Source: a virus
Taxonomy: Duplodnaviria > Heunggongvirae > Uroviricota > Caudoviricetes
Virus record (IMG/VR): IMGVR_UViG_2663762810_000004
Location: 1-30,189 of that record
Length of the DNA stretch: 30,189 nucleotides
Reading direction: 5' to 3' (one strand)
A model generated the notes under the pieces. It made no database searches. It was given only the letters and a program-made list of their open reading frames with translations, and was not told where the DNA came from. The translations under genes and the position numbers were made by a program. How positions within the stretch are numbered: position 1 is the first letter of the stretch; every line of letters starts with the position of its first letter. Positions 2,617 through 25,922 of the stretch are shown one piece after another.

Positions 2617-2789
2617 GGCGTTTTACCTTTACGTTCCTGTTCCAGTTGCACCAGAGACTCTTTTAATGCTGCGAACGTAGCGTCCAGTCTGGTGGCAACT
2701 TCGCGCATAAGCGGTGCATGCTTTGGTGGCAGTTCAGCAACGGAGGCAAAAGCCTCCGTAACGAGTTCTTTTACCTTCATGCGGCGCAT
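2614..2789 (-). CDS. Small hypothetical protein (about 58 aa), below the ORF-track size cutoff
   Basis: Hand translation of the minus strand gives MRRMKVKELVTEAFASVAELPPKHAPLMREVATRLDATFAALKESLVQLEQERKGKTP. A GGAG lies about 9 nt upstream and the stop overlaps the next start (ATGA). Confidence 0.4.
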
Positions 2790-2832
2790 TGGCGCAGCTC
2801 CGCCAGTTCGTTAAAGCGTTGCGCACAGGGGG

Positions 2833-3270
2833 TTGCGCCTTCCGGATGAGAAGATCCGCTCTGTCATGAGGGAAAGCGACATAGTGCCTTCCCCGTCTGC
2901 AACCAGCCTCGTGCAGAAGAAAGCGAAGAAGATCCTCACGCTCTCTGTTGATCCGGAGTCTCCTGAATCTTTCATGCTCAGGCCAAAACGCCGCCGCTGG
3001 GTAAATGAGACATACACCCGCTGGGTTAAAACACAACCCTGTGAGTGTTGCCGACGGCCAGCAGATGATCCGCACCATATCGTAGGGCACGGTTTGGGTG
3101 GTACAGCAACAAAAGCCCATGACCTCTTCGTGATCCCTCTGTGCAGAGAGTGCCACGACGAGTTACACGCCGATGTACCGGCATTCGAGCAGAAGCATGG
3201 TACGCAGCTTGAGCTGCTACTGCGTTTTATGGATCGGGCGCTGGCGATCGGCGTAATTGCGAAAGCTTAA
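2833..3270 (+). CDS. HNH-like Cys/His zinc-binding protein (DUF968/YdfU-like or NinG-like) upstream of Q
   Basis: Motif PCECC...HHIVGHG...LCRECHDELH. Position immediately upstream of the Q-like gene matches the recalled ydfU-quuQ arrangement of the Qin prophage. Confidence 0.5.
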   Translation: MRLPDEKIRSVMRESDIVPSPSATSLVQKKAKKILTLSVDPESPESFMLRPKRRRWVNETYTRWVKTQPCECCRRPADDPHHIVGHGLGGTATKAHDLFVIPLCRECHDELHADVPAFEQKHGTQLELLLRFMDRALAIGVIAKA

Positions 3271-3981
3271 GTGTATGGAGCGCAAAGAAGCATGAATCAA
3301 CAAGACCTGAATTTTGTAAGAATAGAATTGCGCCGCGCGCTACCTGACCTCTCTGGGGGAACAAAAGGGCAGCTTGAGGCTTTCAGTGAACACCCACCAG
3401 CAGACAAAAATGCCACCCCGCGCCGTGGAATTCATCTCGTCGAACTCGAAGGAGAGAAGGGGCCTCGCTTTGTTAACTCGCTTTCCGCGCCATTGTATGT
3501 ATTGGAAACACGCAGCCGCTGCAGGCCAATGCCGCCGATAAAAGATGCGGAATTTGAGTCCGCGCCGTGGCGTAGGGCAGTGTCCGCGCTTAGTGGATAC
3601 CAGCAGGCCTGGTTGCGGTACTGCTACGGTTTTGACCTTAGCTATAAGCACCAGGTGATGATGTGTGAATACGTCTGGAAAACTTATCAGAAATGCCTGG
3701 GTGATAATTCCCTTCAGGAGCGCGTAGTAAAGAAACTGATTGGCCTGGTATGGCTGGCAGGGCAGGAAATTGCCGCAACCAGAAATAATGAAACCTATAA
3801 AGACTATGCTGGTGCAGCGTTGGCCCGCATGGTTAGCGTTGATCGTTCGACATGGTTGCGTGTCTATTCAGGGCACTGGGCTGGGTTAAAGGCCGCTTTT
3901 ACCCAGCTTGATGAATCTGCGTTGGCAATGGCTCTTGAATACTATGAGGAAGAAGAAGCCCTCAAAGTGGCAGAAATGTAA
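3271..3981 (+). CDS. Putative late-gene antitermination protein Q-like (QuuQ-type)
   Basis: 236 aa ORF placed between the nin-like gene and a tR'-like terminator ahead of the lysis genes. Family assignment is from gene context and recalled similarity only. Confidence 0.45.
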   Translation: MYGAQRSMNQQDLNFVRIELRRALPDLSGGTKGQLEAFSEHPPADKNATPRRGIHLVELEGEKGPRFVNSLSAPLYVLETRSRCRPMPPIKDAEFESAPWRRAVSALSGYQQAWLRYCYGFDLSYKHQVMMCEYVWKTYQKCLGDNSLQERVVKKLIGLVWLAGQEIAATRNNETYKDYAGAALARMVSVDRSTWLRVYSGHWAGLKAAFTQLDESALAMALEYYEEEEALKVAEM

Positions 3982-4075
3982 AGTAAATTTCACTATCTCC
4001 TTCAAACGCGCTTGCAAAATGCAACAAAATAAGCCATATTTAAAGCGTATTTGATATGTTGCCAAAGTTTTATAA

Positions 4076-4100
4076 ACCCGCCAATGAGCGGGTTTTTGCG
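4076..4100 (+). terminator. Rho-independent terminator (tR'-like) downstream of the Q-like gene
   Basis: AAACCCGC-caatga-GCGGGTTTTTGCG: an 8 bp GC-rich stem followed by a T-run. Confidence 0.6.
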
Positions 4101-4144
4101 TTATAATTCACCGATTTAAACCAATTGTTTTAAATAGGTGAAGT

Positions 4145-4996
4145 ATGAAAATAGATAATCCCGAAAATCCACTTGAACGAAACGATTTTTCGATGGATGA
4201 CTTCCATCACTACTTAAGGGAGTTTGATAAAGCTGTATGTGAAGCGAATGCTGTAAGTCAGGGGGTTGGTGTGCGAATGGCTGAGGCTTTTAAAGGGTGG
4301 TCTACATACATTTTTTCACGAATCTGCATTCATGCTTCAATAATGATTTCCAACGTACCAAAATCAAGATGGGCTAAGCGGGATTATGACTTTTGGGATT
4401 TTTCGGCGATTGCACCTCATGTAAGAGCGATTCTGGAAGCTGAGTTATTGTTTATGTATTTATCTGAGAATCCAGATTCAACTGAGGAGTGGTCAGCAAA
4501 GTTGAATGTCATGCACATGAATGATTGTGTAAAGAGAATTGAGTTATTTACATCTAGTGATAATACGAAAGCATTGGATTTTTATCATGAACAAAAAGAT
4601 ATAATAACTGAGAGACTTAATAACAACCCTGTTTTTTTATCCCTTGAACAAGGAACCAGAAAACGTTGCTTGACTGGAAAAGCGCTTATGATTCCAAATC
4701 GAGATGAGTTATTGGTTAAACTGGGAAAAGATCCAAAGTCATTTAAAATAATGTTCGATTTTTTATCTCATTATACGCATATACTACCTATGTCATATTA
4801 TAAAATGGAGCCAAACGGAAGAGGAACTGGTTGTTTTAACAACTATGACTTTGGCTATATGATTATGGGGATGATTATTTGTACTGAATCCTTGACTAAG
4901 TGTACAGATAGATTAGTAGAACTTTTTCCTGATGTTAGACGGTTGCGAAAAGGAACTAAATCAAAATTCACGTTAGGTCCTAAACCTACAAAATAA
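4145..4996 (+). CDS. AT-rich hypothetical cargo protein (283 aa)
   Basis: Long ORF in a distinctly AT-rich block between the Q terminator and the lysis cassette. No recognisable family. Confidence 0.6.
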   Translation: MKIDNPENPLERNDFSMDDFHHYLREFDKAVCEANAVSQGVGVRMAEAFKGWSTYIFSRICIHASIMISNVPKSRWAKRDYDFWDFSAIAPHVRAILEAELLFMYLSENPDSTEEWSAKLNVMHMNDCVKRIELFTSSDNTKALDFYHEQKDIITERLNNNPVFLSLEQGTRKRCLTGKALMIPNRDELLVKLGKDPKSFKIMFDFLSHYTHILPMSYYKMEPNGRGTGCFNNYDFGYMIMGMIICTESLTKCTDRLVELFPDVRRLRKGTKSKFTLGPKPTK

Positions 4997-5022
4997 CAAT
5001 GAGTCGCTTGCTGCTATTTTAA

Positions 5023-5050
5023 AGGCTTCCAAATGGAAGTCTTTTATAAT
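5023..5050 (+). terminator. Possible terminator after the 4145-4996 gene
   Basis: Imperfect hairpin AGGCTTCC-aaat-GGAAGTCT followed by a T-rich tract. Confidence 0.35.
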
Positions 5051-5214
5051 TTCAGGTTTCGCAAATTATACTTATCTTCACATTTTCATAATAGCGCATA
5101 AGCCAGCCCCCCCTCCATCAACCACAGCGCCATACGAACTATCGGAGGTGAGGCTAAATTAGTAATCGTTCTTACCTGCACAGGTGCATAAAAATCAGCC
5201 TAAAATGCGAGTTT

Positions 5215-5877
5215 TTATGAAGAGAGCAGCATGACTTTTTCTTTTGCGGGCGAAGGTGACTGCTCTTTCAAAGGGAAAATTATAAATGCTATAAATGCAG
5301 TAAATAATACTATGAAAGCTAGCACTGTAACTTTCCTTGAAGATGATAGGGCTTTGTTATATTCCTTGGCTATTTTGTTCGTTATATGGATCTTAGTGCT
5401 ATTTATTTCATCTTTTAGTATGGATAATTTATTTATAAATTCCTGTGTTTCTTCTCGAGAGTAAAGTTCTGAAGCATCTCTTGGGGTTTCATGTGGATGC
5501 CGAGTATAACCAAGTATTTGTGGTATTAAATTACCATGCGATTGAACTACAGATTCATATTTCTTATAGCAAGCATTATCAAAAAATCTCATTCTTATGC
5601 TAAGTTCTCTGAGTTTGTCAACGTCTAGAGAAACTTGTTCGTTGGCAATAATTAAATCTCCGCGGTTTAATGTATTCTTGTGTTGAAAAATTAGTAAAAG
5701 CCATTCTGTATTATTGTAAAGCTTTTCAAGATTGGCATGTATATCAAGTCCGAGTTTTTCATATGCGGATAATTTGACCTCTTTTTCCTTTGCAGAAAGA
5801 GAAGATGAATAAGCCAGTAATCCGCTTATTATGGCAACAATAAATGTTCCTATAATGGTTAAGGTATTCGAGTCCAT
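5215..5877 (-). CDS. AT-rich hypothetical membrane protein. Start taken at the internal Met (MDSNTLTII) at 5875-5877; the ORF track extends to 5934.
   Basis: Hydrophobic segments at both the N terminus (IIGTFIVAIISGLLAY) and C terminus (VLAFIVLFTAFIAFIIF). Convergent with the 4145-4996 gene. Confidence 0.5.
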   Translation of the reverse strand: MDSNTLTIIGTFIVAIISGLLAYSSSLSAKEKEVKLSAYEKLGLDIHANLEKLYNNTEWLLLIFQHKNTLNRGDLIIANEQVSLDVDKLRELSIRMRFFDNACYKKYESVVQSHGNLIPQILGYTRHPHETPRDASELYSREETQEFINKLSILKDEINSTKIHITNKIAKEYNKALSSSRKVTVLAFIVLFTAFIAFIIFPLKEQSPSPAKEKVMLLSS

Positions 5878-5984
5878 TGTATTCTTCAAAAGTTGGTCAA
5901 AAATATATTGTAATATTTTAATGTATAAAATCAATCATTTCCCCTCATTCTGAGAGGACTCACAGCAACAAAGAGGGGGGCTAA

Positions 5985-6371
5985 ATGTCCGATCCGATTT
6001 CCGGTTCTGGGATGGCTGGTGGTGTCCTGACGGGGGCCAGCGTCTATGGATTTCTGTCCGGAACCGATTACGGCGTGGTGTTTGGCGCATTTGCCGGGGC
6101 TGTATTTTACATTGCAACCGCAGCGGATCTAAGTGCAGCGCGCCGACTGGCATATTTTCTGGTGTCGTATATTGCGGGGATCCTTTGTTCCGGGCTGGTG
6201 GGTTCAAAGCTGGCTCAGGCTACCGGCTACAGTGATAAACCACTGGATGCCATTGGCGCCGTAATCGTTTCTGCTTTAGCCGTCAAAATCCTGACATTCC
6301 TGAATAATCAGGATGTCGGCTCGCTGGTGGCGCTGATAACGCGCCGGGGAGGTTCAGGTGGTACAAAATGA
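5985..6371 (+). CDS. Putative holin-like membrane protein
   Basis: 128 aa Gly/Ala-rich protein with several hydrophobic segments, directly upstream of the endolysin. SD-like GAGGGGGG lies upstream of the ATG. Confidence 0.5.
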   Translation: MSDPISGSGMAGGVLTGASVYGFLSGTDYGVVFGAFAGAVFYIATAADLSAARRLAYFLVSYIAGILCSGLVGSKLAQATGYSDKPLDAIGAVIVSALAVKILTFLNNQDVGSLVALITRRGGSGGTK

Positions 6372-6639
6372 CCCATCGGCAACTTTTAATGCATTGCTTT
6401 GTGCTGGGGTAGTGTTAACCCTGATGTTTTACCGTCGCGGCGACTCGCGACATCGACCGTGGATATCTCGCTTAGCGTGGCTGCTTACGGTCATCTACAG
6501 CGCCGTTCCGCTGGCGTATCTGTGCGGTATTTACCCGTACTCATCATGGGCCACTATCGGGGCCAACTTTATTTTCCTGTCCGTGCTGGTCGCCGTAAGA
6601 GGCAACGTGGCACGTCTGGTTGATCATCTGAGGCACTAA
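6358..6639 (+). CDS. Putative second holin/antiholin-like membrane protein
   Basis: 93 aa with 2-3 hydrophobic segments; overlaps the previous gene's end and abuts the endolysin start. Confidence 0.45.
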   Translation: MVQNDPSATFNALLCAGVVLTLMFYRRGDSRHRPWISRLAWLLTVIYSAVPLAYLCGIYPYSSWATIGANFIFLSVLVAVRGNVARLVDHLRH

Positions 6640-7253
6640 TGAACCAATCACAATTTCAGCAGGCGGCTGGTATCAGCGCCGGGCTTTCTGCGCGCTGGTT
6701 TCCGCACATTGACGCGGCAATGAAAGAGTTTGGCATTACAGCTACGAACGATCTGGCTATGTTCATCGCCCAGGTTGGGCATGAGTCTGCTGGCTTTACC
6801 TCGCTGGTGGAAAGCTTCAACTACTCGGTAGAGGGGCTGAAGAAAACCTTTGGTAAACGGCTTACTCCTTATCAGTGTGAAATGCTGGGTCGTGTCGATG
6901 GTAAGCAGGTGGCCCACCAGCCGCAAATAGCCAATCTGGTTTATGGTGACCGCATGGGGAATAACAGCCAGGGTGACGGCTGGAAATATCGCGGTCGCGG
7001 CCTGCTGCAAATCACGGGTCGTGAGAACTACACCAAATGCGGCACGGCGCTGAAACTTGACCTTATCAGTACGCCAGAATTGCTAACGCAAGAGCGACAT
7101 GCGGCTCGTTCGGCTGCGTGGTACTTCACGTTACGCGGTTGCCTGATGTATTCGGGTGACGTGGCACGCGTTACGCAGATTATTAACGGCGGACAGAACG
7201 GCATTAAAGACCGCCGTGAACGTTACGCCAAAGCTAAAGCTGCACTGGTGTGA
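6639..7253 (+). CDS. Endolysin, glycoside hydrolase family 19 (chitinase-like lysozyme)
   Basis: Contains the GH19 endolysin hallmark FIAQVGHESAGF and NYTKCG/LLQITGRENY motifs; sits between holin-like and spanin genes. Confidence 0.9.
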   Translation: MNQSQFQQAAGISAGLSARWFPHIDAAMKEFGITATNDLAMFIAQVGHESAGFTSLVESFNYSVEGLKKTFGKRLTPYQCEMLGRVDGKQVAHQPQIANLVYGDRMGNNSQGDGWKYRGRGLLQITGRENYTKCGTALKLDLISTPELLTQERHAARSAAWYFTLRGCLMYSGDVARVTQIINGGQNGIKDRRERYAKAKAALV

Positions 7254-7260
7254 GGTCAGT

Positions 7261-7530
7261 ATGGGGCTTGAAATGATTATCGGCCTGGTTGTTGCTGTGC
7301 TGGCTGCAATTGCAGGTGCTTTTGGGCTGGGCAAATCACGCGGTACCAGTATCGCTGAAACAAAAGCGGACCAACAACGCACTGAAGAACGTGCAATAGC
7401 TATTGAAGCGGTTGCAGAACGCCGGGTAGAAACAACAAAAGGAGCCAGGGATGTACAACAGACTGTTAACCATATGCCTGATGACGCTGCTGATCGCGAG
7501 CTGCGCAAAAACTGGACACGTAAGGATTGA
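7261..7530 (+). CDS. i-spanin (Rz-like). Start taken at the internal Met (MGLEMIIGL) at 7261; the ORF track begins at 7156.
   Basis: N-terminal TM helix (IIGLVVAVLAAIAGAF) followed by a charged helical region, immediately after the endolysin. Confidence 0.6.
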   Translation: MGLEMIIGLVVAVLAAIAGAFGLGKSRGTSIAETKADQQRTEERAIAIEAVAERRVETTKGARDVQQTVNHMPDDAADRELRKNWTRKD

Positions 7531-7672
7531 GGTTATTGACACCGGCTGCGATTGGGTAAAACCCATCTACGGCACTGCTCATGATTGGGAAGTGCTGGAC
7601 AGGCAGACCAAGAAAGACATTCTTATGCATAACAAAGTGTGGATGTCAAACTGTGGCTCTATAACTTATTGA
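7451..7672 (+). CDS. o-spanin (Rz1-like outer-membrane lipoprotein), overlapped type
   Basis: Signal peptide with lipobox LIASC. Begins in the +1 frame inside the i-spanin gene and extends beyond it. Confidence 0.6.
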   Translation: MYNRLLTICLMTLLIASCAKTGHVRIEVIDTGCDWVKPIYGTAHDWEVLDRQTKKDILMHNKVWMSNCGSITY

Positions 7673-8322
7673 TTTTGTTTTTTGTTGTCTACCATATCAG
7701 GCAATGTGAAGGCATATAGAAGAAATACTTCGGTGAAACCAATCATTTCTTGAGCATCTTCTTTTGAAAATTCTTCATCAGAATGAACTGCTCCATTGGA
7801 ATCGATTCGAACTATATGTGCCCATTCCCTCATTTGATCTGTAATCAGTCCCTTAGCATGCAACATAGAAATCCGTTTAACCAATTTTTCATCTTTTGAG
7901 TCATTTCCCAGTAACTCCCGTGTAGCAATGTCCAAGACTTTACGGCAAAGCATAACGGATGTGTCGAAACGACAGCGCCCTAAGTTGTCTTTTGCTTCTA
8001 TGAAAGCCATAGCAGCACGTGGCGGAGTGTGTTCGGGGGCGTTAAGGAGGGTGGGTTTCGGGATGATATCAATCAACTGGTACTCAGTATTTCCAGGAAT
8101 GATTACGTTTACATCATTATTTTGCCTAGATTTTGCACGAGGTAAATAACCACCGGGATTATTCATTTTTACAATAGCAATACCTGATTGAAAACAGCTT
8201 CGACAACAAAATGCAATATTAACTAAAGGCCCGGCGTTGATACGCAGTTCTGCCCATCCTTCAAGGACAGCATTTTCCCTCAGACAATGTGGGCAAGTGA
8301 TATCGAAAGTGAGAATTCGCAT
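7666..8322 (-). CDS. DUF4145-like protein with N-terminal Cys cluster (candidate abortive-infection/defence gene). Start taken at MRILTFD (8320-8322).
   Basis: C-terminal region (RKVLDIATRELLG...HAKGLITDQMREWAHIVRIDSNGAVH) matches the recalled DUF4145 helical signature. N-terminal CPHC...CCRSC suggests a zinc ribbon. Lies in the moron slot between lysis and packaging genes. Confidence 0.6.
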   Translation of the reverse strand: MRILTFDITCPHCLRENAVLEGWAELRINAGPLVNIAFCCRSCFQSGIAIVKMNNPGGYLPRAKSRQNNDVNVIIPGNTEYQLIDIIPKPTLLNAPEHTPPRAAMAFIEAKDNLGRCRFDTSVMLCRKVLDIATRELLGNDSKDEKLVKRISMLHAKGLITDQMREWAHIVRIDSNGAVHSDEEFSKEDAQEMIGFTEVFLLYAFTLPDMVDNKKQNQ

Positions 8323-9067
8323 GACTCTACTCCATACATTAAAAGAAATTGAAAATGAATTACACAATGCACAACGACCTGAGTCTACACTCCTTCAACG
8401 ATATGAAGTATCGAATGAGATTAAAAAAAAGGAGTTTGTAGTCGCTTTGATCGGTAAACTGATAGAATTGGACCGCCGTCTCTATGTCACATCATTGAAG
8501 CCTTAGTTTCAATTTTACCGATTTATCGCTTAAGGGGTAGGACTTCAACACTACTAAGTGAGCATTGCAGCAGGCATTCAGGGGAATGCTGTGACAGTAG
8601 TTAGCTAGGGTAAACCGTTTGCGCCTGGGGATTTTACTTTGCGACGGAAAATTAAAAAACTATATGATTTCTTATCCCACTAGGATGTCTGCGGACTACT
8701 ACTGACTGTTTAGGCTATTACGAGGGGCTCAAACTCAACGTCTGGCATCAACGCAGAACTGAAAAAGTCGCCATGAATGTGGTTACGGTATTTGGTGGGA
8801 TATAAACGTACCTTCATTTCTAAGCTTGATAATCACCTTTGTCCGAATTGCCTACGCGATAGTCATGTAGTTTTAGTCATAACCGTTTACCCTATTGATG
8901 TCAAGATAAATTGGATAACACTGATGAATCGAACCTCTAAATCCTTTGATGGGCCACTCATAGCTGACTGGTTCAAAAAAGTGTTATCAATGGTATGATA
9001 AGTTGAGATGAAAGGTGTAAATGAACTATAATAATTCAACAGTTAATCTGAGAAAAATGGATTATGT

Positions 9068-9337
9068 ATGTCGAATGTAAAAAAAATAGATGCTATAGTT
9101 CAAAATTTATTTGAATTCAGAGATGCTACAGGTGAACTTACGGATAAAAATATTGTTTTAATACAAAAAATCATAACGAACTTACCTGACTATGCTGGTA
9201 AGGATCCATATGAATTTTATTCATCATTTTCTGAAGATATTAATGAGTCGCTCAAAGCAATTGCCAATTATCATAAGGCACATGCTAAATACATTAATGC
9301 CCTCGATAAATTAGCAGAGCTTAGGTCGGAGGGGTAA
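9068..9337 (+). CDS. AT-rich hypothetical small protein (first gene of a two-gene cargo operon)
   Basis: 89 aa ORF in an AT-rich block; the next gene starts 3 nt after its stop. Confidence 0.5.
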   Translation: MSNVKKIDAIVQNLFEFRDATGELTDKNIVLIQKIITNLPDYAGKDPYEFYSSFSEDINESLKAIANYHKAHAKYINALDKLAELRSEG

Positions 9338-9339
9338 TA

Positions 9340-9717
9340 ATGGCTACGGAAGATATTCAGGCTTTGTTATCTAAAGTTAATGCGTTAAGATTTGAAGATA
9401 AAAGAATAGAGAAGGAAACAGGAGAGATTGAAAATGAAATTCAGGCTCAATTTCTTCGTGATGGTAAAACAAGGAGTACATTAACCATAACATTTATGAG
9501 AGGCTTTTTTGGTCTTATCGTTTTTTCTTTTATATTTGTGATAGTTTATAACTATTGCGCAGTGCAATGGGTACTTCAATTACAAAGCAAAGGGCTCATG
9601 GAGGCTTCTAAAAGTATCGCACTACTTGAGTTAGATAAGGTGTTATCTATTATGGTTAGTGCGTTAGGAACATCTCTTGGGTTTATAATTGGCTATTATT
9701 TTAAAGACAAAAAATAA
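9340..9717 (+). CDS. AT-rich hypothetical membrane protein (second gene of the two-gene cargo operon)
   Basis: N-terminal predicted coiled-coil (EDIQALLSKVNALRFEDKRIEKETGEIENEIQAQ) followed by a TM helix (FFGLIVFSFIFVIVYNY). Confidence 0.5.
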   Translation: MATEDIQALLSKVNALRFEDKRIEKETGEIENEIQAQFLRDGKTRSTLTITFMRGFFGLIVFSFIFVIVYNYCAVQWVLQLQSKGLMEASKSIALLELDKVLSIMVSALGTSLGFIIGYYFKDKK

Positions 9718-9790
9718 ATAATTTAATTTTACATTGCTATTTATGTTTTGCTTTTAAGATTTTTAACTTTCTAGATGTAGAGTTATTGTT

Positions 9791-9822
9791 AAAGCACTGG
9801 TATTTGCCAGTGCTTTTTTATT
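9791..9822 (+). terminator. Rho-independent terminator after the 9068-9717 operon
   Basis: AAAGCACTGG-tatttg-CCAGTGCTTTTTTATT: a perfect 10 bp stem plus T-run. Confidence 0.6.
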
Positions 9823-10217
9823 AAAATCCGCGGATTAATGACGGCAATCATGAATACTCCTCCAAAGACTGATCCAACGATACGGGTGTATAAGTCACAC
9901 TTGTTTAATCTGTGATTGATGGCACTATAATTTATGTTGCACAACATAAACTGCCGATGGAGGGAATTGAGTGCTGAGCATGTCAGACATAAGTGTGTTG
10001 TCGAAGGTCTCCTCAGGCATGGTTTCTGCATAACGTCGACACTTGAAAGCCTCCATAATGACAATAAAGTATAAGTATTATCATTATTAATTGTCACTTG
10101 CCGTTGCGACATGCTTGGGCGGCGACCGCCTAAGTTCTCTTTATAAATGAGAAGTTCCCGCTAGCGACCGTTTCTGATTCTTTTTTTCTACTAAGTTTGT
10201 ATCAAATAAACAGGATA

Positions 10218-10586
10218 ATGCCGATGCCAGCACGAGCAAAGCGTCCATGCCGGCACAAGGGCTGTGCGGCAGTTACCAACGATGCCAGTGGCTATTGTGA
10301 TCAACACCGACAGCGGCATGCTGGTGATGGCTGGCGTAACTATCAGGCAGGAAAGAGCAGGCAGGAACGTGGATATGGGCGGACCTGGGAAATTAAACGG
10401 GTGCGTATCCTTCAGCGTGATAAGTACCTGTGTCAGAACCATCGCCGGCAGAAGATTGCAAAAAAGGCGACCAGCGTTGACCACATCATTCCAAAAGCTC
10501 ATGGCGGTACTGATGACGATTTCAATCTTGAGTCGTTGTGCTGGGACTGCCACAGAGCGAAGACGGCAAGAGAGCGTATCCGATGA
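10218..10586 (+). CDS. Phage HNH endonuclease (packaging-associated). Start taken at MPMPARAK (10218).
   Basis: HNH motif (DHIIPKAHGGTDDDFNLESLCWDCH) with N-terminal Cys/His. Position upstream of terminase small subunit is typical of cos-packaging HK97-like modules. Confidence 0.8.
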   Translation: MPMPARAKRPCRHKGCAAVTNDASGYCDQHRQRHAGDGWRNYQAGKSRQERGYGRTWEIKRVRILQRDKYLCQNHRRQKIAKKATSVDHIIPKAHGGTDDDFNLESLCWDCHRAKTARERIR

Positions 10587-10921
10587 GTTAGACCCATTGC
10601 ACATATTTTGGTTCACGGCTCTATACAATAGCTAACTGCCCAAAATAATGGGGTGGTTCATCGCGCCGCGCCAACCTGCACTGCAGCTATTGTGGGCAGT
10701 CAGGGCATAACTCTAGTGCCTGTCCACATAATGAGAGCTGCGGTCGTCGGCGCAGCCTGAATGATGACTTCCATCTTGATTGATGCCCACACAGGCCAGG
10801 GGAAGGGGGGATCAAATCCCTGACCCCTTTCGCCTTCCAGGACTGCCGCCTGAAGGACATTTTTATACGCAAGAAATAAGGATCTTTTTTCCGGTAGGTT
10901 TTAACTATTAATAGAGGTGTT

Positions 10922-20174: not shown

Positions 20175-22232
20175 ATGCCCATTCTTGCACCAGGATTTTT
20201 GGGAGGCTCGTCCGCCGGGAATGGCGGCGGGCCGGTCTCTTCAGTTCAGCAGCCGGAATACTTCTATGTCATCCCGGTTGCCGGTCAGTCAAACGCGATG
20301 GCCTACGGCGAAGGGCTCCCCCTTCCAGACACGCTGGATGCGCCTCACCCGCGTATTAAACAGCTGGCCCGGCGCGCCACGGTAACGCCCGGCGGCGATG
20401 CCTGCAAATACAACGACATTATTCCTCTCGATCACTGTCCGCACGATGTTCAGGACATGAGCGGGATCAGCCACCCGAGAGCGGACCTCAGTAAAGGGCA
20501 ATATGGGTGTGTCAGCCAGACGCTGCACATTGCCAGAAAACTCCTGGCCTGGATCCCCGATAACGCAGGTATTCTGATGGTGCCCTGTTGTCGCGGTGGC
20601 TCTGCCTTCACGCAGGGAGTGGACGGCACTTTCAACGTTGTCAGTGGTGCCAGCGAAACCGCAACCCGATGGGGGGCGGGAAAGCCGTTGTACCGTGACC
20701 TGCTCACCCGCACGAAAGCAGCGCTCGACAGCAACCCGAAAAATATGCTGCTGGCGGTATGCTGGATGCAGGGTGAATTTGATATGACAGGGGCGGCTTA
20801 TGCACAGCAGCCTGCGCTGTTCGACGCTATGGTCAGGCAGTTCCGTACCGACCTGGCGGATTACGCGGGGCAGTGCCCGGACTTCCGGCCTGACAGTGTG
20901 CCGTGGCTGTGCGGGGACACCACGTACTACTGGAAGCGCAACTATCCCGCCCAGTACGATGCTGTTTATGGCGCGTACAGTAAAACCAGTGTCAGCGGCG
21001 TACATTTTGTGCCGTTCATGGTCAGCGAGGATGGCACGAACACCCCTACCAACGCCCCGGCTGAGGATCCGAATGTTCCGGCTGCGGGGTATTTCGGCTC
21101 GGCATCCCGTACTTCTGCCAACTGGACCAGCTCGATCCGCAACAGTCATTTCAGTTCGTGGGCCCGGCGAAACATCATCGCAGAACGTATGGCGGCGGCC
21201 ATTCTGCTGCACGCCGGGCGACGGTCACTGCTGGCGGCCCCGGTTAGTGGAAGTGCAGCGTCTTCAACGGGCGATACAGGCAATGTGGGAACGAGTACGC
21301 TGAAATACGCCCCTGTTGTGGAGGACGCCGGTTATAACGGGCGGCGCGGGGACGGGACGCCGGAGGCCCAGGGCTGGTCAGCCAGCGGCGGTAATTTTAA
21401 CGTGGCACCACACCCGGATGGTAAAGGGGGGCATGTGCTGCAGATCCGCAGAAAAGCCAGTGAAGTCTGGAAAATGGAACGGGCAACCCGACAGGCCGCT
21501 GATTTGTTACGGTATGGTGGCGAGGTGCAGTGCAACTTCCGGCTCGTTAATACACTGACGGCAAACCAGTTTGCTTTTGGCTGCTATCTGCTGGTGAATG
21601 AATCGGATGTTCCGGCCGGAGCCTCGTTACGGCTGAAAGCCGAGGGCACCACACCGGCGCTGATGAATTTCTTCATACAGACGAATGCTACAGATTTGAA
21701 TCTGATGATGCACTGCAAACCCGACAATATCAGGCTGGGTACGTACGGTGCGTACAATCAGGACTGGCATTCGTTCAGGGTCGTTTACCATGGCGGAAAC
21801 ACAGCCCGGGCCACGCTTTATCTCGATGGTGAGTCGAAGGGCGAGTTCACGCTGGCGTACTCGCCGGGGGCTGTCGATGCAGGCATGCTGCAACTGACAA
21901 ATATCACCTCCTCACCGACCTATGGATGCAATATTAAGGATTTTACCGTCAAAATTTACCGCGACGATGCCATAGTCAGTCTGCCTGACGACGATGTGTC
22001 CAGTCTGATTTATTTTCCGGCGGGGGAGCGCGGCGGGAAAGTGGTGTTACCGGATGCGAAAATCAGCGCAGGAAACACAGTGCAGGTGGTGGTGAACAAT
22101 GCCGGTATCATCGCCATTGAACCAGCAAGCAGCAACGTACTGCTTAACAATCTGCCTTCTTCTGCAACCACTGACAGAAGTGTCACGCTGGTTCAGACCA
22201 GTCTGGACGGGAAGACCTGGGTGATTACCTGA
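20175..22232 (+). CDS. Tail-fibre-region protein with an N-terminal SGNH hydrolase/sialate-O-acetylesterase-like domain and a C-terminal lectin-like region (NanS-p-like)
   Basis: N-terminal FYVIPVAGQSNAMAYGE (GQSN motif) and CWMQGEFDM are typical of the SGNH/SASA esterase family. 685 aa; the 3' end is duplicated downstream at about 25216-25383. Confidence 0.75.
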   Translation: MPILAPGFLGGSSAGNGGGPVSSVQQPEYFYVIPVAGQSNAMAYGEGLPLPDTLDAPHPRIKQLARRATVTPGGDACKYNDIIPLDHCPHDVQDMSGISHPRADLSKGQYGCVSQTLHIARKLLAWIPDNAGILMVPCCRGGSAFTQGVDGTFNVVSGASETATRWGAGKPLYRDLLTRTKAALDSNPKNMLLAVCWMQGEFDMTGAAYAQQPALFDAMVRQFRTDLADYAGQCPDFRPDSVPWLCGDTTYYWKRNYPAQYDAVYGAYSKTSVSGVHFVPFMVSEDGTNTPTNAPAEDPNVPAAGYFGSASRTSANWTSSIRNSHFSSWARRNIIAERMAAAILLHAGRRSLLAAPVSGSAASSTGDTGNVGTSTLKYAPVVEDAGYNGRRGDGTPEAQGWSASGGNFNVAPHPDGKGGHVLQIRRKASEVWKMERATRQAADLLRYGGEVQCNFRLVNTLTANQFAFGCYLLVNESDVPAGASLRLKAEGTTPALMNFFIQTNATDLNLMMHCKPDNIRLGTYGAYNQDWHSFRVVYHGGNTARATLYLDGESKGEFTLAYSPGAVDAGMLQLTNITSSPTYGCNIKDFTVKIYRDDAIVSLPDDDVSSLIYFPAGERGGKVVLPDAKISAGNTVQVVVNNAGIIAIEPASSNVLLNNLPSSATTDRSVTLVQTSLDGKTWVIT

Positions 22233-22271: not shown

Positions 22272-22335
22272 CATGTAGTGCTACTTGCGTTTTTATAAGG
22301 CTATTTTCGGTAGTAAATATGCAGCGTCCTCGTTA

Positions 22336-22920
22336 CAGAGGACACGTAATGTATTTCACCAGCAGGAAACGGAAGGCAAGAGATCGAGCTCTCATTTTTA
22401 ACAGAAATTTATTAGGACAAAATATTGACAGTTATCAGTAAAAAAGGCCGCTTCTACTTTTGGGGAGGAAGCGGCCGGTGAACTACGATGATAATAATGC
22501 TTTCTGACTACATATGTCTTATCGACACAACCCAGTCCTCGGGCAGGTATATTTATTTCACCTGCAGGAAAGAGAAAACAGTGATCAGTCTCTCATTTTT
22601 GAGAAAAATCATAGAAATAAATGATTGCGGGTAAAAAAAACGCTTCACCACAGTAAAGGATGAAGCGTGAGTCAGAATAAAAGTATTCATAAATCCACGT
22701 TTGCATTACTTCCTATACATACAGAAGTAAGGTTACTTATTTCACCTGCAGGGAAAAAAAGGCAAGGATTTGGATCTCATTTTTGAAGAGAACGCCGAAA
22801 AAATAGAATGAAAGGTAAAAAAAACGCTTCAACACAGGACAGGGTGAAGCGCCAGACATAATACAAATCCAATAAACGTAATTTTACTCTTTCAGCACTT
22901 CTGCTCCATACAGAAGTGCA
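22336..22920. repeat. Three tandem ~185-200 bp units of a periodic repeat family (conserved 5' TATTTCACC-[A/T]GCAGG, central CTCATTTTTGA, A-run plus hairpin), followed by a fourth unit fused to the DUF1353-like gene
   Basis: TATTTCACC motif at 22352, 22554, 22738 and 22926; TCTCATTTTTGA about 38 bp downstream of the first three; A7-8 plus hairpin (GGCCGCTTC/GAAGCGGCC, CGCTTCA/TGAAGCG) about 90 bp downstream. Confidence 0.7.
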
Positions 22921-22952
22921 ATATGTATTTCACCATCAGGCGGAACAAGTCA

Positions 22953-23333
22953 ATGAGTAAATTCACCACCCCGGCGATACTGGAAATGCTGGGTCATTAC
23001 AAATGGCGGGTGTACGAACCCTTCGAGTTTTACCTCTCGGATGACAACAGCGATGTGATTAAGGTCCCGGCGGGGTTTGTGACCGATCTGGCAAGCGTGC
23101 CCCGGATATTCTGGACATTCCTCCCACCTGATGGGCGGTATGCCAAAGCAGCTATCATTCATGATTACATGTACGATAATGCGCTACGGACAAAGAAAGA
23201 AGCCGATCTCATTTTTCTGGACGGGATGCGGGTACTGGGTGTGCCAGAGTGGAAGCGTTCGGTGATGTACCACGCTGTACGGATGTTTGGTAAAGGGCGG
23301 TATGCGCAGAATAGAACCCTTCCAGGTGTTTAG
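22953..23333 (+). CDS. DUF1353-like small protein, copy 1. Start taken at MSKFTT (22953).
   Basis: Conserved VPAGFVTDLASVPR ... AAIIHDYMYD pattern recalled for DUF1353. Near-identical second copy at 25923-26303 and a decayed copy at 24808. Confidence 0.6.
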   Translation: MSKFTTPAILEMLGHYKWRVYEPFEFYLSDDNSDVIKVPAGFVTDLASVPRIFWTFLPPDGRYAKAAIIHDYMYDNALRTKKEADLIFLDGMRVLGVPEWKRSVMYHAVRMFGKGRYAQNRTLPGV

Positions 23334-23423
23334 TCACCAGTTCCGGAAGATCAGCTCGGCTGAGTCGGGCTTCTATCGACTGAAATAACTTCTCCATTTC
23401 GTTCTTGTACATATGAATTCCAC

Positions 23424-23460
23424 AGAAAAAATGCCACTTATCTGGCTTCCAGATAAGTGG
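23424..23460 (-). terminator. Rho-independent terminator for the minus-strand cargo gene; also present in the duplicated copy at about 26394-26430
   Basis: Perfect palindrome CCACTTATCTGG-cttc-CAGATAAGTGG preceded on the plus strand by AAAAAAT (a U-tract on the minus strand). Confidence 0.5.
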
Positions 23461-23485
23461 CCAGTCAACGGTAGAACGCTTCTAC

Positions 23486-24370
23486 TTAGCTTTTTGTGAA
23501 ACGGTAAAATAAATTGGGCTCACTGACAATATACAAATTAAATTTGTCATCGATAGTAATGCCCTCTGCTTGTTTAATATCCTTTGTTAATCCCGACCAC
23601 CCTGCATCCAGATAGAGTCGATCGGTAATACGTCCCACAGGATTAACTTCAACCACTATTTTTGATTCATCTGAAAGTATCAGTAGTGAAGATGTTAGAG
23701 GATGGTAATGCAGCCCAGATACATCCTTCAAAGACGAAGTGATAACGGTTGGAAAAATTTTAATATGCGCATCATCATTCTGGGGAAATATTCTGCTAAT
23801 GATTATTGGTATTTTTTCCTTTGCTGAATATAAATGCTGTTTCTCTTTATCCCAGGCCAGTCCTTCCAGTCCGTTGTTTTTGGGAGTGGCGTAATCATTA
23901 AACTTAATCTTCGAAATGACAGTATAACTAAAAGCATGTAAGTCTAATTTTACCATCCAGGCTGTGCTGTTTTTCTCACTTCCTATATAGAATACATCTT
24001 TACCAACCCACTCTACAGCTTCTGTATCCTCAAATTCAGGTAAGGTCATACTTCCCACTCTGTCGCCTTCCTTTGTCAGCCATATCAGTTCTGGTGGGTT
24101 ATTAACAACAGCAAACAGAAGTTTGTGTTTATCTGACCAGGTCAGGCCAGACAGATTATTCTTTACACCTTCAACAGGTTTGCCCTCTATGTCTGCCCGA
24201 TATGCGCTAAGATTAAGGCTTGTTGGGATATCTTCATATTTTTCATATAATCGATAGATATATATTATATCCTTATAGATGTACATAAAACAAACCACAA
24301 AAATAGCCACAAAAATTAAATACCTTAAATATATGCTCAATATTTCATCCAAATAATAAAGTAAAGCCAA
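23486..24370 (-). CDS. AT-rich cargo protein with N-terminal hydrophobic segment and beta-rich body (possibly YjiK/SdiA-regulated-like propeller; unconfirmed)
   Basis: 294 aa ORF in a strongly AT-rich block flanked by the two DUF1353 repeat copies and followed by a terminator. N terminus LIFVAIFVVCFMYIY is hydrophobic; the true start may be a later Met. Confidence 0.6.
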   Translation of the reverse strand: MALLYYLDEILSIYLRYLIFVAIFVVCFMYIYKDIIYIYRLYEKYEDIPTSLNLSAYRADIEGKPVEGVKNNLSGLTWSDKHKLLFAVVNNPPELIWLTKEGDRVGSMTLPEFEDTEAVEWVGKDVFYIGSEKNSTAWMVKLDLHAFSYTVISKIKFNDYATPKNNGLEGLAWDKEKQHLYSAKEKIPIIISRIFPQNDDAHIKIFPTVITSSLKDVSGLHYHPLTSSLLILSDESKIVVEVNPVGRITDRLYLDAGWSGLTKDIKQAEGITIDDKFNLYIVSEPNLFYRFTKS

Positions 24371-24529
24371 TCATGACTTTGGAGATGATATTAATGAGGG
24401 GCGTTTGTATCCAACTGTTTCTAAAAATTTTTTAATATGAGCAATCAGTGTCGAAGTAACCCTGATAGAACAGTTTTCTTGGCTAAATACCAATTAAAGG
24501 AGGAGTACATAACGAAACCTCAGCCAGGT

Positions 24530-24780
24530 AGTATTATTTACAAATCCACGTTTGCATTACTTCCGCTAGATACAACAGTAAGATTATGTATTTCACCATC
24601 AGATGGCGAAAAACAATGATCAATGTCTCATTTTTGAATCATGATTCAGTTCAGGGGGGGGATTGATGAAAAAAAACCGCTCAATCATGGGAAAGAGCGG
24701 TCTGAAATCATTACGCCTACAATATTAATATGAACGCTACTAGATCCGGCAGATAAAGATAAGCCTGCTGGAGGTGATTT
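24530..24780. repeat. One unit of the same periodic repeat family, followed by a unit fused to the DUF1353 pseudogene
   Basis: TATTTCACC at 24589 and 24781; GTCTCATTTTTGA at 24625; A8 plus hairpin CCGCTC/GAGCGG at about 24669-24700. Confidence 0.6.
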
Positions 24781-24807
24781 TATTTCACCAGTAGATGGGA
24801 TATGTCA

Positions 24808-24965
24808 ATGAGTAAATTCACCACTCCGTCGATACTGGAAATGCTGGGTAATTACAAATGGCAGGTGTACGACCCTTCGAGTTTTACCTCTCAGATGATA
24901 ATGTCAGCGCCAGTGATGTGATTAAAGGTCCCGGCGGGATTTGTGACCGCCTTGGCTGGTTATAG
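24808..24965 (+). pseudogene. DUF1353-like gene 5' fragment, frameshifted/decayed
   Basis: Starts ATGAGTAAATTCACCAC (MSKFTTPSILEMLGNYKWQVY), matching the intact copies, then loses frame and runs into the tail-fibre remnant. Confidence 0.6.
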
Positions 24966-25383
24966 GGGGACAGAGCCCTGGTTTCAGAGTTGACAGTTTG
25001 CCGTGGTTGTGCCGAGGAGCACAACGTACTAATCATTGCAAAACGCATGTCTGGCGATGCAGGTATGCTGCAGCTGGCAAATACCACCTCGTAATCGACC
25101 TGTAGATGCAATATTAAGGATTTCAGAGTCAAAATTTACCGGGATGTGTAGTGATCAGTCGTTTTTTTCTGTGGGAAGCTGCCGCGGGAAATCAGTACTG
25201 CTGGATACAGAAACCAGCGTGGGGAATACGGTACAGGTGGTGGCGAACAATGCCGGTATCATCGCCATTGAACCAGCAAGCAGCAACGTACTGCTTAACA
25301 ATCTGCCTTCTTCTACAACCACTGACAGAAGTGTCACGCTGGTTCAGACCAGTCTGGACGGGAAGACCTGGGTGATTACCTGA
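24966..25383 (+). pseudogene. Decayed remnant of the esterase tail-fibre gene 3' end (internally deleted, with in-frame stops)
   Basis: Nucleotide similarity to 20885-20930 and 21880-22232 of the intact gene, with stops. The last 160 bp or so (VGNTVQVVANNAGIIAIEPASSNVLLNNLPSS...TWVIT) are near-identical to 22075-22232, as is the downstream hairpin. Confidence 0.6.
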
Positions 25384-25494
25384 AAAAAAAGCCGCTTCTG
25401 TAACAGGAAAGACAGAAGCGGCTAGGTAGTGCTACTTGCGTTTTTATAAAGATTATTTCAACAATGAAAAGTACAACCTGTTATATGCATCGCT

Positions 25495-25890
25495 CTCATC
25501 CCTGAAGGCATACAATGTATTTCACCTGCAGGAAAGGTAAGGCAAGGATCAAGCTCTCATTTTTGAGAAAAATCATAGAACCAAATGAATTTAGGGTAAA
25601 AAAACGCTTCGCCACAAGACAGGATGAAGAGTCAGTCAGAAAACAAGCATAATGAATGCAATCCTACTCATTCCGTACTGTTACTCCACATAGAGGTACA
25701 GTATGTGTTTCATCATCAGTCTGTGAATATCGTGGGTCAAGGAAAGATCAGTATCTCATTTCAGAGCATGAGATGCGTTGGAACAGATAAAAATATAAAA
25801 AAGACCGCTCAATCATGGGAGAGAGCGGTGGAAGAAATTTTGACAATATGACCTACAACCAGCAGGAAAAGAAGAAACCTGCTGGTGTAG
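25495..25890. repeat. Two units of the periodic repeat family, followed by a unit fused to DUF1353 copy 2
   Basis: Motif at 25518 (TATTTCACC), a variant at about 25703 (TGTGTTTCATC) and 25896; CTCTCATTTTTGA at 25555; hairpins at about 25598-25625 and 25795-25827. Confidence 0.6.
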
Positions 25891-25922
25891 AGATTTATTT
25901 CACCAGCAGACGGAATAAGTCA

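Follow-up and report, generated by a model that had tools for sequence, protein, structure and literature searches.

Two independently distributed cargo genes, a DUF5677 relative and an orphan membrane-protein gene, between Q and the lysis cassette of an Escherichia coli lambdoid prophage

Introduction

Morons of lambdoid phages are autonomous units of promoter, gene and terminator, first described in HK97 and HK022. The slot between the antiterminator gene Q and the holin gene holds the porin genes nmpC and lc in DLP12 and PA-2, and the superinfection-exclusion membrane proteins of prophages include SieA of P22, Imm of T4 and gp15 of HK97. Here we describe two adjacent AT-rich genes, ORF1 and ORF2, that occupy the Q-to-holin slot of a lambdoid prophage of Escherichia coli. 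The DNA analysed comprises positions 1 to 30,189 of IMG/VR record IMGVR_UViG_2663762810_000004 (30,189 nucleotides; hereafter the window). In Stx phages, this same slot is occupied by the stx genes, which are co-transcribed with the late genes (PMC8065619).

Since the slot carries Shiga toxin and conversion genes, its occupants are candidates for traits of host fitness or phage resistance. Moron cargo at this place is a familiar feature, here with two uncharacterised proteins. The new points are the independence of ORF1 and ORF2 from each other, a strict rule of position and orientation for each of them across genera, and the place of ORF1 in family DUF5677. Two vaguely delimited reading frames thus become two defined cassettes: a DUF5677 gene standing first after the tR' terminator, and an orphan membrane-protein gene antisense to late transcription.

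Results

Two convergent genes between Q and the lysis cassette

Two open reading frames (ORFs) were found intact and convergent (tail to tail) in the slot, as a preliminary description of this DNA had proposed. They and their neighbours are as follows.

3271-3981, plus strand: Q antiterminator gene (PF06323, expectation value E 3.7e-36; phrog_304, E 2e-71), left border of the cargo slot
4145-4996, plus strand: ORF1, 283 amino acids from an ATG start, soluble and all-helical, a divergent DUF5677 member by profile comparison
5215-5877, minus strand: ORF2, 220 amino acids from its ATG, a predicted inner-membrane protein of an orphan family
5985-6371, plus strand: Phage_holin_8 gene (PF16931, E 5.6e-34), right border of the slot and divergent from ORF2
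6358-6639, plus strand: Phage_holin_3_7 gene, second holin of the lysis cassette
6639-7253, plus strand: GH19 endolysin gene, closing the lysis cassette

The preliminary description had extended the region to 5934. A mechanical reading of the ORF2 frame does reach a TTG at that position; all 17 homologues, however, begin at the methionine of MDSN.., and the real start is therefore placed at 5877, with Shine-Dalgarno-like purines upstream of the ATG. The assignment of a soluble protein and a membrane protein stands. ORF1 lacks a hydrophobic segment (maximum 1.19 on the Kyte-Doolittle scale over 19 residues), and two such segments are present in ORF2, around residues 5-25 and 181-203.

The low G+C content (GC) noted earlier was borne out by a profile of GC and of GC at third codon positions (GC3). 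The interval 4145-5934 has a GC of 0.349 against a window mean of 0.471; values this low are reached in only 2% of windows of the same length. The block with GC below 0.40 covers 3850-6058 (range 0.31-0.40), with both flanks at 0.50-0.56, and GC3 is 0.30 in ORF1 and 0.26 in ORF2 against 0.51-0.58 in Q, both holin genes and the endolysin gene.

Judged by their conservation, ORF1 and ORF2 are both real genes under purifying selection. Ratios of nonsynonymous to synonymous substitution rates (dN/dS, by NG86) range from 0.04 to 0.31, values that are approximate since dS is saturated in most comparisons and NG86 gave no estimate in several; ORF1 gives 0.04 against the Hafnia copy, and ORF2 gives 0.07-0.31. 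Many alignment columns are invariant, full-length intact homologues occur across genera, and Shine-Dalgarno-like motifs and start codons are conserved among the homologues of both. Signs of pseudogenisation, which the preliminary description had named as grounds for rejecting its interpretation, were thus not seen in these genes.

ORF1 and ORF2 form separate cassettes

The signals and junctions of the slot, in order, are listed here.

4012-4040, plus strand: candidate late promoter PR' (TTGCAA, 17 nucleotides, CATATT), read from the sequence and conserved in the prophage of E. coli Nissle
4074-4097, plus strand: tR'-like intrinsic terminator (AAACCCGCC..GAGCGGGTTTTT), hairpin of -12 kcal/mol, z -2.8; left recombination boundary
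4102-4107, plus strand: candidate -10-like hexamer TATAAT ahead of ORF1 and lacking a recognisable -35
5021-5044, plus strand: intrinsic terminator after ORF1, hairpin and T-run, -12.5 kcal/mol, z -3.4 on the plus strand and -8.5 kcal/mol, z -2.3 on the minus strand
5109-5156, plus strand: recombination scar between ORF1 and ORF2, a remnant of the leader of a Phage_holin_2-type holin gene
5902-5934, minus strand: promoter-like sites for ORF2 (TTGATT, 16 nucleotides, TACAAT, and an overlapping site), from a consensus scan at 9 of 12 positions

ORF1 and ORF2 occur together only in this E. coli phage lineage, and each is found alone in every other genus sampled. ORF1 homologues without ORF2 lie between Q and holin, co-oriented with them, in five further Enterobacterales lineages: Hafnia alvei (86% identity), Enterobacter bugandensis (82%), Citrobacter freundii (58%), Yersinia bercovieri (57%) and Raoultella terrigena (50%). 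The phages carrying these slot copies differ in their Q, with at least three types defined by Pfam (PF06323, PF06530 and DUF1133) and an unassigned 200-residue protein where Q would stand, and in their holin, which is of the holin_8 or the holin_2 type. The gene therefore recurs at an exact position in six lineages, which does not fit the sporadic insert implied by the preliminary description.

The ORF1 cassette is bracketed by terminators, tR' upstream and its own one downstream. ORF1 starts 47 bp past tR', and the Hafnia cassette is homologous at the nucleotide level from 4074, at the terminator, to the ORF1 stop. In an alignment of the six enteric cassettes, a TAnAAT-type hexamer stands a few tens of nucleotides 5' of the ATG in all six. 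A clear hairpin follows the ORF1 stop in four or five of them, with differing stem sequences; equivalents are present in Hafnia, E. bugandensis, Raoultella and Yersinia, and the C. freundii one is weaker. Given the symmetric flanks of the hairpin in the window, it may serve ORF2 as well; ORF2 otherwise has a weak terminator candidate.

The left border is equally well defined. The tR'-like hairpin and T-run start about 90 bp past the Q stop codon, and the stem and T-run are invariant in an alignment of five prophages with three Q families. We infer that this hairpin is the tR' terminator of a short PR' leader; PR' itself stays a candidate because its score falls under the scan threshold of 9 of 12. 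The Q region is 97.8% identical to that of the Nissle prophage, with identity ending at 4097, and beyond this point Nissle carries an SDH Clp-fold protease and a DNA methyltransferase, then a holin. This breakpoint, with different cargo beyond it, identifies the slot as the known variable cargo slot of lambdoid phages and agrees with the accessory location first assigned to the two genes.

ORF2 follows a rule of its own. Homologues with 37-61% identity occupy the same slot without ORF1, always in antisense orientation, in E. mori, Lelliottia, Kosakonia, K. oxytoca and C. braakii, and two viral contigs, in which the holin side alone was examined, have an ORF2 homologue beside holin_8 in the same relative orientation. 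ORF2 is divergent from the Phage_holin_8 gene, at a distance of about 100 bp, in the window and in six of these seven other loci (five genera and two viral contigs). In Lelliottia and Kosakonia, homology to the ORF2 cassette extends from the middle of ORF2 (its 5' half) through the spacer and deep into the holin gene. In E. mori, where ORF2 lies beside a lysis cassette without holin_8 similarity, it ends after about 20 bases of the holin gene. Hafnia has a holin_8 cassette without ORF2.

The stretch at 5109-5156, lying between ORF1 and ORF2, has 88-90% identity to the 48 (or 29) bases leading up to the ATG of holin_2-type genes in Nissle, C. freundii and E. bugandensis. These junctions and distributions show ORF1 and ORF2 to be unrelated, independently mobile cassettes, stacked by mosaic recombination, and not the single two-gene insertion originally described. 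The most economical history would be an ORF1 cassette followed by a holin_2 module, the latter then swapped at about 5157 for a module of ORF2 and holin_8. A match of 5155-5180 to C. braakii (E 0.006) was in the wrong orientation and was treated as chance.

Megablast of 3900-6000 found nothing in 50,697 phage records; among 5,426 complete E. coli genomes it returned the Q end and not the cargo.

In C. freundii, an orphan N6/N4 DNA methyltransferase gene comes after the ORF1 homologue. In two assemblies of this species (positions 5001-10820 of both loci), the methyltransferase is truncated, and P2-like tail genes (Phage_tube, Tail_P2_I and a tail fibre), either fused to it or beside it, take the place of the lysis cassette, an arrangement that suggests a rearranged or hybrid prophage.

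Family, structure and relatives of ORF1

Profile comparison places ORF1 as a divergent, stand-alone member of DUF5677 (PF18928), itself an uncharacterised family. The direct match of ORF1 residues 84-219 to model positions 25-156 of 166 scores 21.7 bits (E 2.3e-4), under the gathering threshold of 27.1 bits. The assignment is carried by the relatives: 34 of 44 match DUF5677 (best E 1.1e-8) and no other family, and the DUF5677 model gives 35-47 bits to proteins that the ORF1-family profile retrieves at E <= 1e-40. The preliminary description had recognised no family for either protein, which holds for ORF2 and not for ORF1. Membership gives no mechanism, because DUF5677 has no known function. 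At 90% identity the homologues of ORF1 fall into 71 clusters; at E <= 1e-3, the family takes in 1,256 representative clusters.

The AlphaFold2 (AF2) model of ORF1 is soluble and all-helical, with a predicted local distance difference test (pLDDT) score of 89 and a predicted template modelling (pTM) score of 0.87. Six polar residues are conserved: R94, E98, D127, R131, S208 and H212. Comparison of the fold returned no informative match, and Foldseek against viral structures (BFVD) gave nothing at E <= 0.001. Profiles of the ORF1 and ORF2 families against PDB sequences produced noise only (E >= 0.15). Neither protein matches a model in PADLOC-DB v2 (at E <= 0.1), PHROGs or NCBIfam, and a PADLOC scan of the 44 ORF1 relatives gave scattered chance-level matches. 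Confident homology to a housekeeping phage function, the other ground named for rejecting the first interpretation, was found for neither gene in Pfam, PHROGs, NCBIfam or PADLOC. Assignment of ORF1 to the HEPN superfamily was dropped because it has no Rx4-6H motif, and a zinc site (C61, C128, H212) because the wider family does not keep the two cysteines.

Outside the enteric bacteria, all-against-all BLAST of neighbours from 13 loci revealed no conserved partner gene, and no phage hallmark was found among the scanned neighbours of the non-enteric loci. Celerinatantimonas, Rheinheimera and Vibrio have copies with 81-84% identity to one another, which points to recent horizontal transfer. Some neighbours are of defence type. 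In Vibrio, the ORF1 homologue directly follows a gene for a 640-residue protein with a restriction endonuclease (REase) domain, DUF4365, and TPR repeats; in Acidithiobacillus, it precedes a candidate PDC-S49 KAP NTPase. Fusions occur among the relatives, one with a RES toxin domain and others with DUF1353 or MtlR-like domains. In Bacillota, enrichment of DUF5677 has been reported in the vicinity of serine recombinases that serve as markers of defence islands (PMC12632615).

Two of these relatives deserve a fuller description. In Vibrio cyclitrophicus (3012-5840 of the locus), the DUF4365 part is Argonaute-associated REase-like (PADLOC E 5e-11), the ORF1 homologue starts 66 bp after the DUF4365-TPR gene, and the context is chromosomal and non-phage; the same locus occurs in Vibrionales SWAT-3, with the first gene apparently split. 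The two genes may form a two-gene defence-like operon. A distant DUF5677 relative is a DUF1353-DUF5677 fusion, and the window encodes DUF1353 proteins at 22923-23333 (plus strand, E 2e-31) and 25815-26303 (plus strand, E 6e-30) in its AT-rich tail-fibre region; this is the only link seen between the ORF1 family and another gene type in the prophage.

Family, predicted structure and signals of ORF2

The ORF2 family is small, with 22 clusters among 5.8 billion proteins, and all of its named members come from Enterobacteriaceae prophages. Searches of Pfam, PHROGs, NCBIfam and PADLOC gave no match. The AF2 model is confident and predicts a first transmembrane (TM) helix, a four-helix bundle and a second TM helix (TM1 and TM2). 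TM1 and the KEKE segment that follows are nearly invariant (T7, G10, V14-L20, A22, S26-S28 and K30-E33), whereas only hydrophobicity is kept in TM2. The near-invariance of TM1 suggests a specific contact of ORF2 within the membrane. The N-terminus (MDSN) has no positive charge, and K/R residues precede TM2; these flanking charges weakly suggest an N-out/C-out topology with a cytoplasmic bundle.

A TTGA(T) -35-like element occurs upstream in most of the eight aligned ORF2 loci, with no invariant column marked across it. The consensus scan that gave the promoter-like sites returned 11 sites in all, against 7.1 +/- 2.5 expected by chance. An inverted repeat in the holin leader (5940-5960), conserved among the loci, was dropped as a candidate since shuffled sequence folds equally well (z -0.3 to -0.8). 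Rfam models matched the region at a sub-threshold, chance level only.

State of the prophage and its other cargo

The left end of the window carries an integrase and an excisionase gene, and icd adjoins relatives of this prophage. Upstream of Q, a DUF968/HNH gene (2789-3270) is cut to its C-terminal 145 residues, compared with about 330 in relatives, and abuts leftward early genes. At the corresponding point, relatives have genes for Ant, RusA, Dam and replication; the immunity, replication and nin genes present in two related loci (L002 and L005) are gone from the window, as they are from one other locus (L004). The window copy is probably a defective prophage, a deletion derivative in which Q-dependent late transcription may never fire. 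Expression of ORF1 and ORF2 in this host would therefore depend on their own promoters.

Further AT-rich blocks lie at 7507-10117, 22323-24874, 25357-26787 and 27914-30189. Just past the lysis cassette, an AT-rich antisense gene (7666-8367, minus strand) encodes a protein of 233 residues whose C-terminal part is a DUF4145 domain (E 8e-11); it matches phrog_1305 'DNA binding protein' (E 4e-43) and, weakly, the PADLOC model PD-T7-4 (E 0.0026). We take DUF4145 to be of HEPN type. This gene is a better defence candidate than ORF1 or ORF2. The block at 9068-9717 (plus strand; GC 0.32, GC3 0.24-0.26) has two co-oriented ORFs of 89 and 125 residues, the longer one hydrophobic (phrog_20796, E 4.5e-49), and the pair is kept in all five related E. 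coli loci (L002-L006).

Additional cargo lies among and beyond the structural genes. Between the DUF1353 genes, an AT-rich gene (23486-24370, minus strand) encodes a 294-residue 'SdiA-regulated' family protein (PF06977, E 5e-72) and is likely lysogenic-conversion cargo. A 685-residue protein (20175-22232, plus strand) contains DUF6645 and a sialate-O-acetylesterase-like domain (SASA), and is probably an esterase-bearing tail fibre or spike. The right end is AT-rich and has, antisense to the structural genes, a Bro-N/P22_AR_C antirepressor-like gene (26748-27407, minus strand) and a DUF1398 gene (29785-30189, minus strand).

Discussion

The best explanation overall, which we hold with moderate confidence, is that the slot contains two autonomous morons, with ORF2 as a membrane exclusion factor expressed in the lysogen and ORF1 as a conflict-related single-gene cassette. 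Cassette 1 would span 4074 to about 5108 (tR', the -10-like hexamer, ORF1 and its terminator), and cassette 2 about 5157 to 5984 (ORF2 and its own promoter-like region, antisense to late transcription). In the lysogen, ORF1 would be weakly transcribed from its own weak promoter, by leak-through at tR', or by both; after induction it would be strongly expressed as the first gene of the Q-antiterminated late transcript. ORF2, antisense to the late operon, would be made in the lysogen from its predicted promoter. On induction, Q-modified polymerase would pass tR' and the ORF1 terminator, cross ORF2 in antisense and shut it off.

The biochemical functions proposed here are guesses. ORF2 may protect the lysogen at the inner membrane, by superinfection exclusion or by a block on the entry of other phages, with its invariant TM1 as the contact surface for a membrane partner. 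ORF1 may be a single-gene factor in conflicts between genomes, acting in defence or abortive infection, or in counter-defence, through the conserved polar site R94, E98, D127, R131, S208 and H212. For ORF1, a conflict role is weakly suggested by the mobility of the family, its want of a fixed partner, the occasional defence-type neighbours and the RES fusion. The preliminary description had offered exclusion, abortive infection or host interaction for both genes; on present evidence such a role is plausible for ORF2 and weakly indicated for ORF1, and that interpretation as a whole is partly supported.

Several observations weigh against this picture of two morons with exclusion and conflict roles. 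The fixed place of ORF1 after tR', its late-operon orientation and its lack of a -35 fit a late phage function at least as well as defence of the lysogen, and ORF2 adjoins Phage_holin_8 in most contexts, which would suit a role in lysis control. All promoters described here are consensus matches only. The four-helix-bundle matches of ORF2 are generic, with de novo designed bundles scoring as high, and the searches of PADLOC-DB, PHROGs and NCBIfam brought up neither protein. The window prophage is a deletion derivative without immunity and replication regions, and late expression may not occur in this host. Finally, the literature search turned up one functional test of the family: a Bacillota DUF5677 ORF, picked because of the enrichment of this domain beside serine recombinases, did not belong to the five candidates out of nine that lowered plaquing in E. 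faecalis (PMC12632615).

The alternative that survives best is that ORF1 is a late accessory protein serving the induced phage, in counter-defence, host takeover or the handling of DNA or RNA, like stx or orphan methyltransferases. We consider this a possible, if unlikely, account. It draws on the sameness of position and orientation in all six enteric lineages, down to 50% identity, on the short distance from tR' and the lack of a -35, on the methyltransferase genes, one after ORF1 in C. freundii and another in the same slot of Nissle, and on the late co-transcription of stx in this slot (PMC8065619). Against it stand the largely non-phage distribution of the family (1,256 representative clusters, with non-enteric loci free of phage hallmarks among the neighbours scanned) and the lack of viral structural relatives in BFVD. 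The terminator and -10-like element of each copy also conform to the moron pattern.

A lysis-regulator role for ORF2, as an antiholin or as a holin-gating membrane partner of the Phage_holin_8/holin_3_7 pair, seems improbable. Restraint of a holin is nevertheless the main alternative for this protein because ORF2 adjoins holin_8 in most contexts; homology blocks that run from ORF2 into the holin gene are of the same tenor, and the small-residue spacing of the near-invariant TM1 (G10, A15, G19, A22) suggests a specific helix-helix contact. However, ORF2 is always antisense to the holin-expressing late transcript, in the window and in the five other genera. The holin_8 cassette of Hafnia lacks ORF2, and ORF2 of E. 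mori lacks a holin_8 neighbour. No holin or lysis family of Pfam or PHROGs is matched, and the adjacency could be hitch-hiking.

The reading of ORF1 and ORF2 as one two-gene system, a toxin-antitoxin or a sensor-effector abortive-infection pair, is very improbable and already largely refuted: the genes are adjacent and convergent in one AT-rich block and possibly share a terminator, yet the pair is confined to one phage lineage, a foreign holin-leader remnant separates its members, and the two families are very unlike in size and taxonomic range (1,256 against 22 clusters). Scarcely credible is a reading of one or both as non-functional remnants or chance ORFs in AT-rich DNA, which is often silenced; the deletion-derivative state of the prophage and the absence of the cargo from the complete E. 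coli genomes searched could be taken to favour it, and it is already refuted as regards coding potential, judging by the intact homologues with low dN/dS (dS saturated), the confident AF2 models and the conserved translation-start motifs.

A bolder reading would have ORF2 found an undescribed class of lysogeny-only membrane factors, for exclusion or holin restraint, and DUF5677 constitute a new single-gene conflict module with an R/E, D/R, S/H catalytic site. Both parts holding together is doubtful. If ORF1 or ORF2 were to block infection, a family now without a function would gain one, and for ORF2 the arrangement would amount to a simple transcriptional-interference switch that confines expression to lysogeny. 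If neither gene has a phenotype, the region would be ordinary mosaic cargo.

Comparison with known systems

As a predicted small, prophage-encoded, inner-membrane-anchored and moron-borne protein, apparently expressed in the lysogen, ORF2 resembles SieA, Imm and gp15. It differs from them in having no PHROGs match and no detected sequence similarity, and to our knowledge a four-helix bundle tethered by two TM helices is not the architecture of any of the three. Matches of ORF2 to four-helix-bundle sensors (Tar/Tsr, NarX/NarQ, QseE and TorS) are generic, at 4-10% identity and equalled by designed bundles. Unlike chemoreceptors and kinase sensors, ORF2 has no output domain and no Pfam 4HB_MCP match, and its charges suggest that the bundle may be cytoplasmic. 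Compared with typical DUF5677 proteins, the ORF1 subfamily has extra N- and C-terminal helices (283 residues against a 166-position model).

Among occupants of the same slot, ORF2 is like nmpC and lc, as we understand those genes, in being a gene for an envelope protein in the style of lysogenic conversion. ORF1 is like stx in lying downstream of PR'/tR' and co-oriented, and would be co-transcribed with the late genes, as stx is (PMC8065619). Neither toxin nor porins share sequence or fold kinship with the two proteins, and ORF2 is a predicted inner-membrane helical protein, not an outer-membrane barrel.

The two genes also resemble morons. ORF1 departs from these in recurring at one fixed position in six enteric lineages and not sporadically, and the promoters here are predicted ones. 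Like morons, both genes have a foreign base composition (GC 0.35 against about 0.53) and are present or absent between the same flanking modules, with ORF1 alone in Hafnia and ORF2 alone in Lelliottia, Kosakonia, K. oxytoca and C. braakii. ORF1 comes with a terminator of its own and a -10-like element, and ORF2, which points against the surrounding operon, has a promoter-like region of its own.

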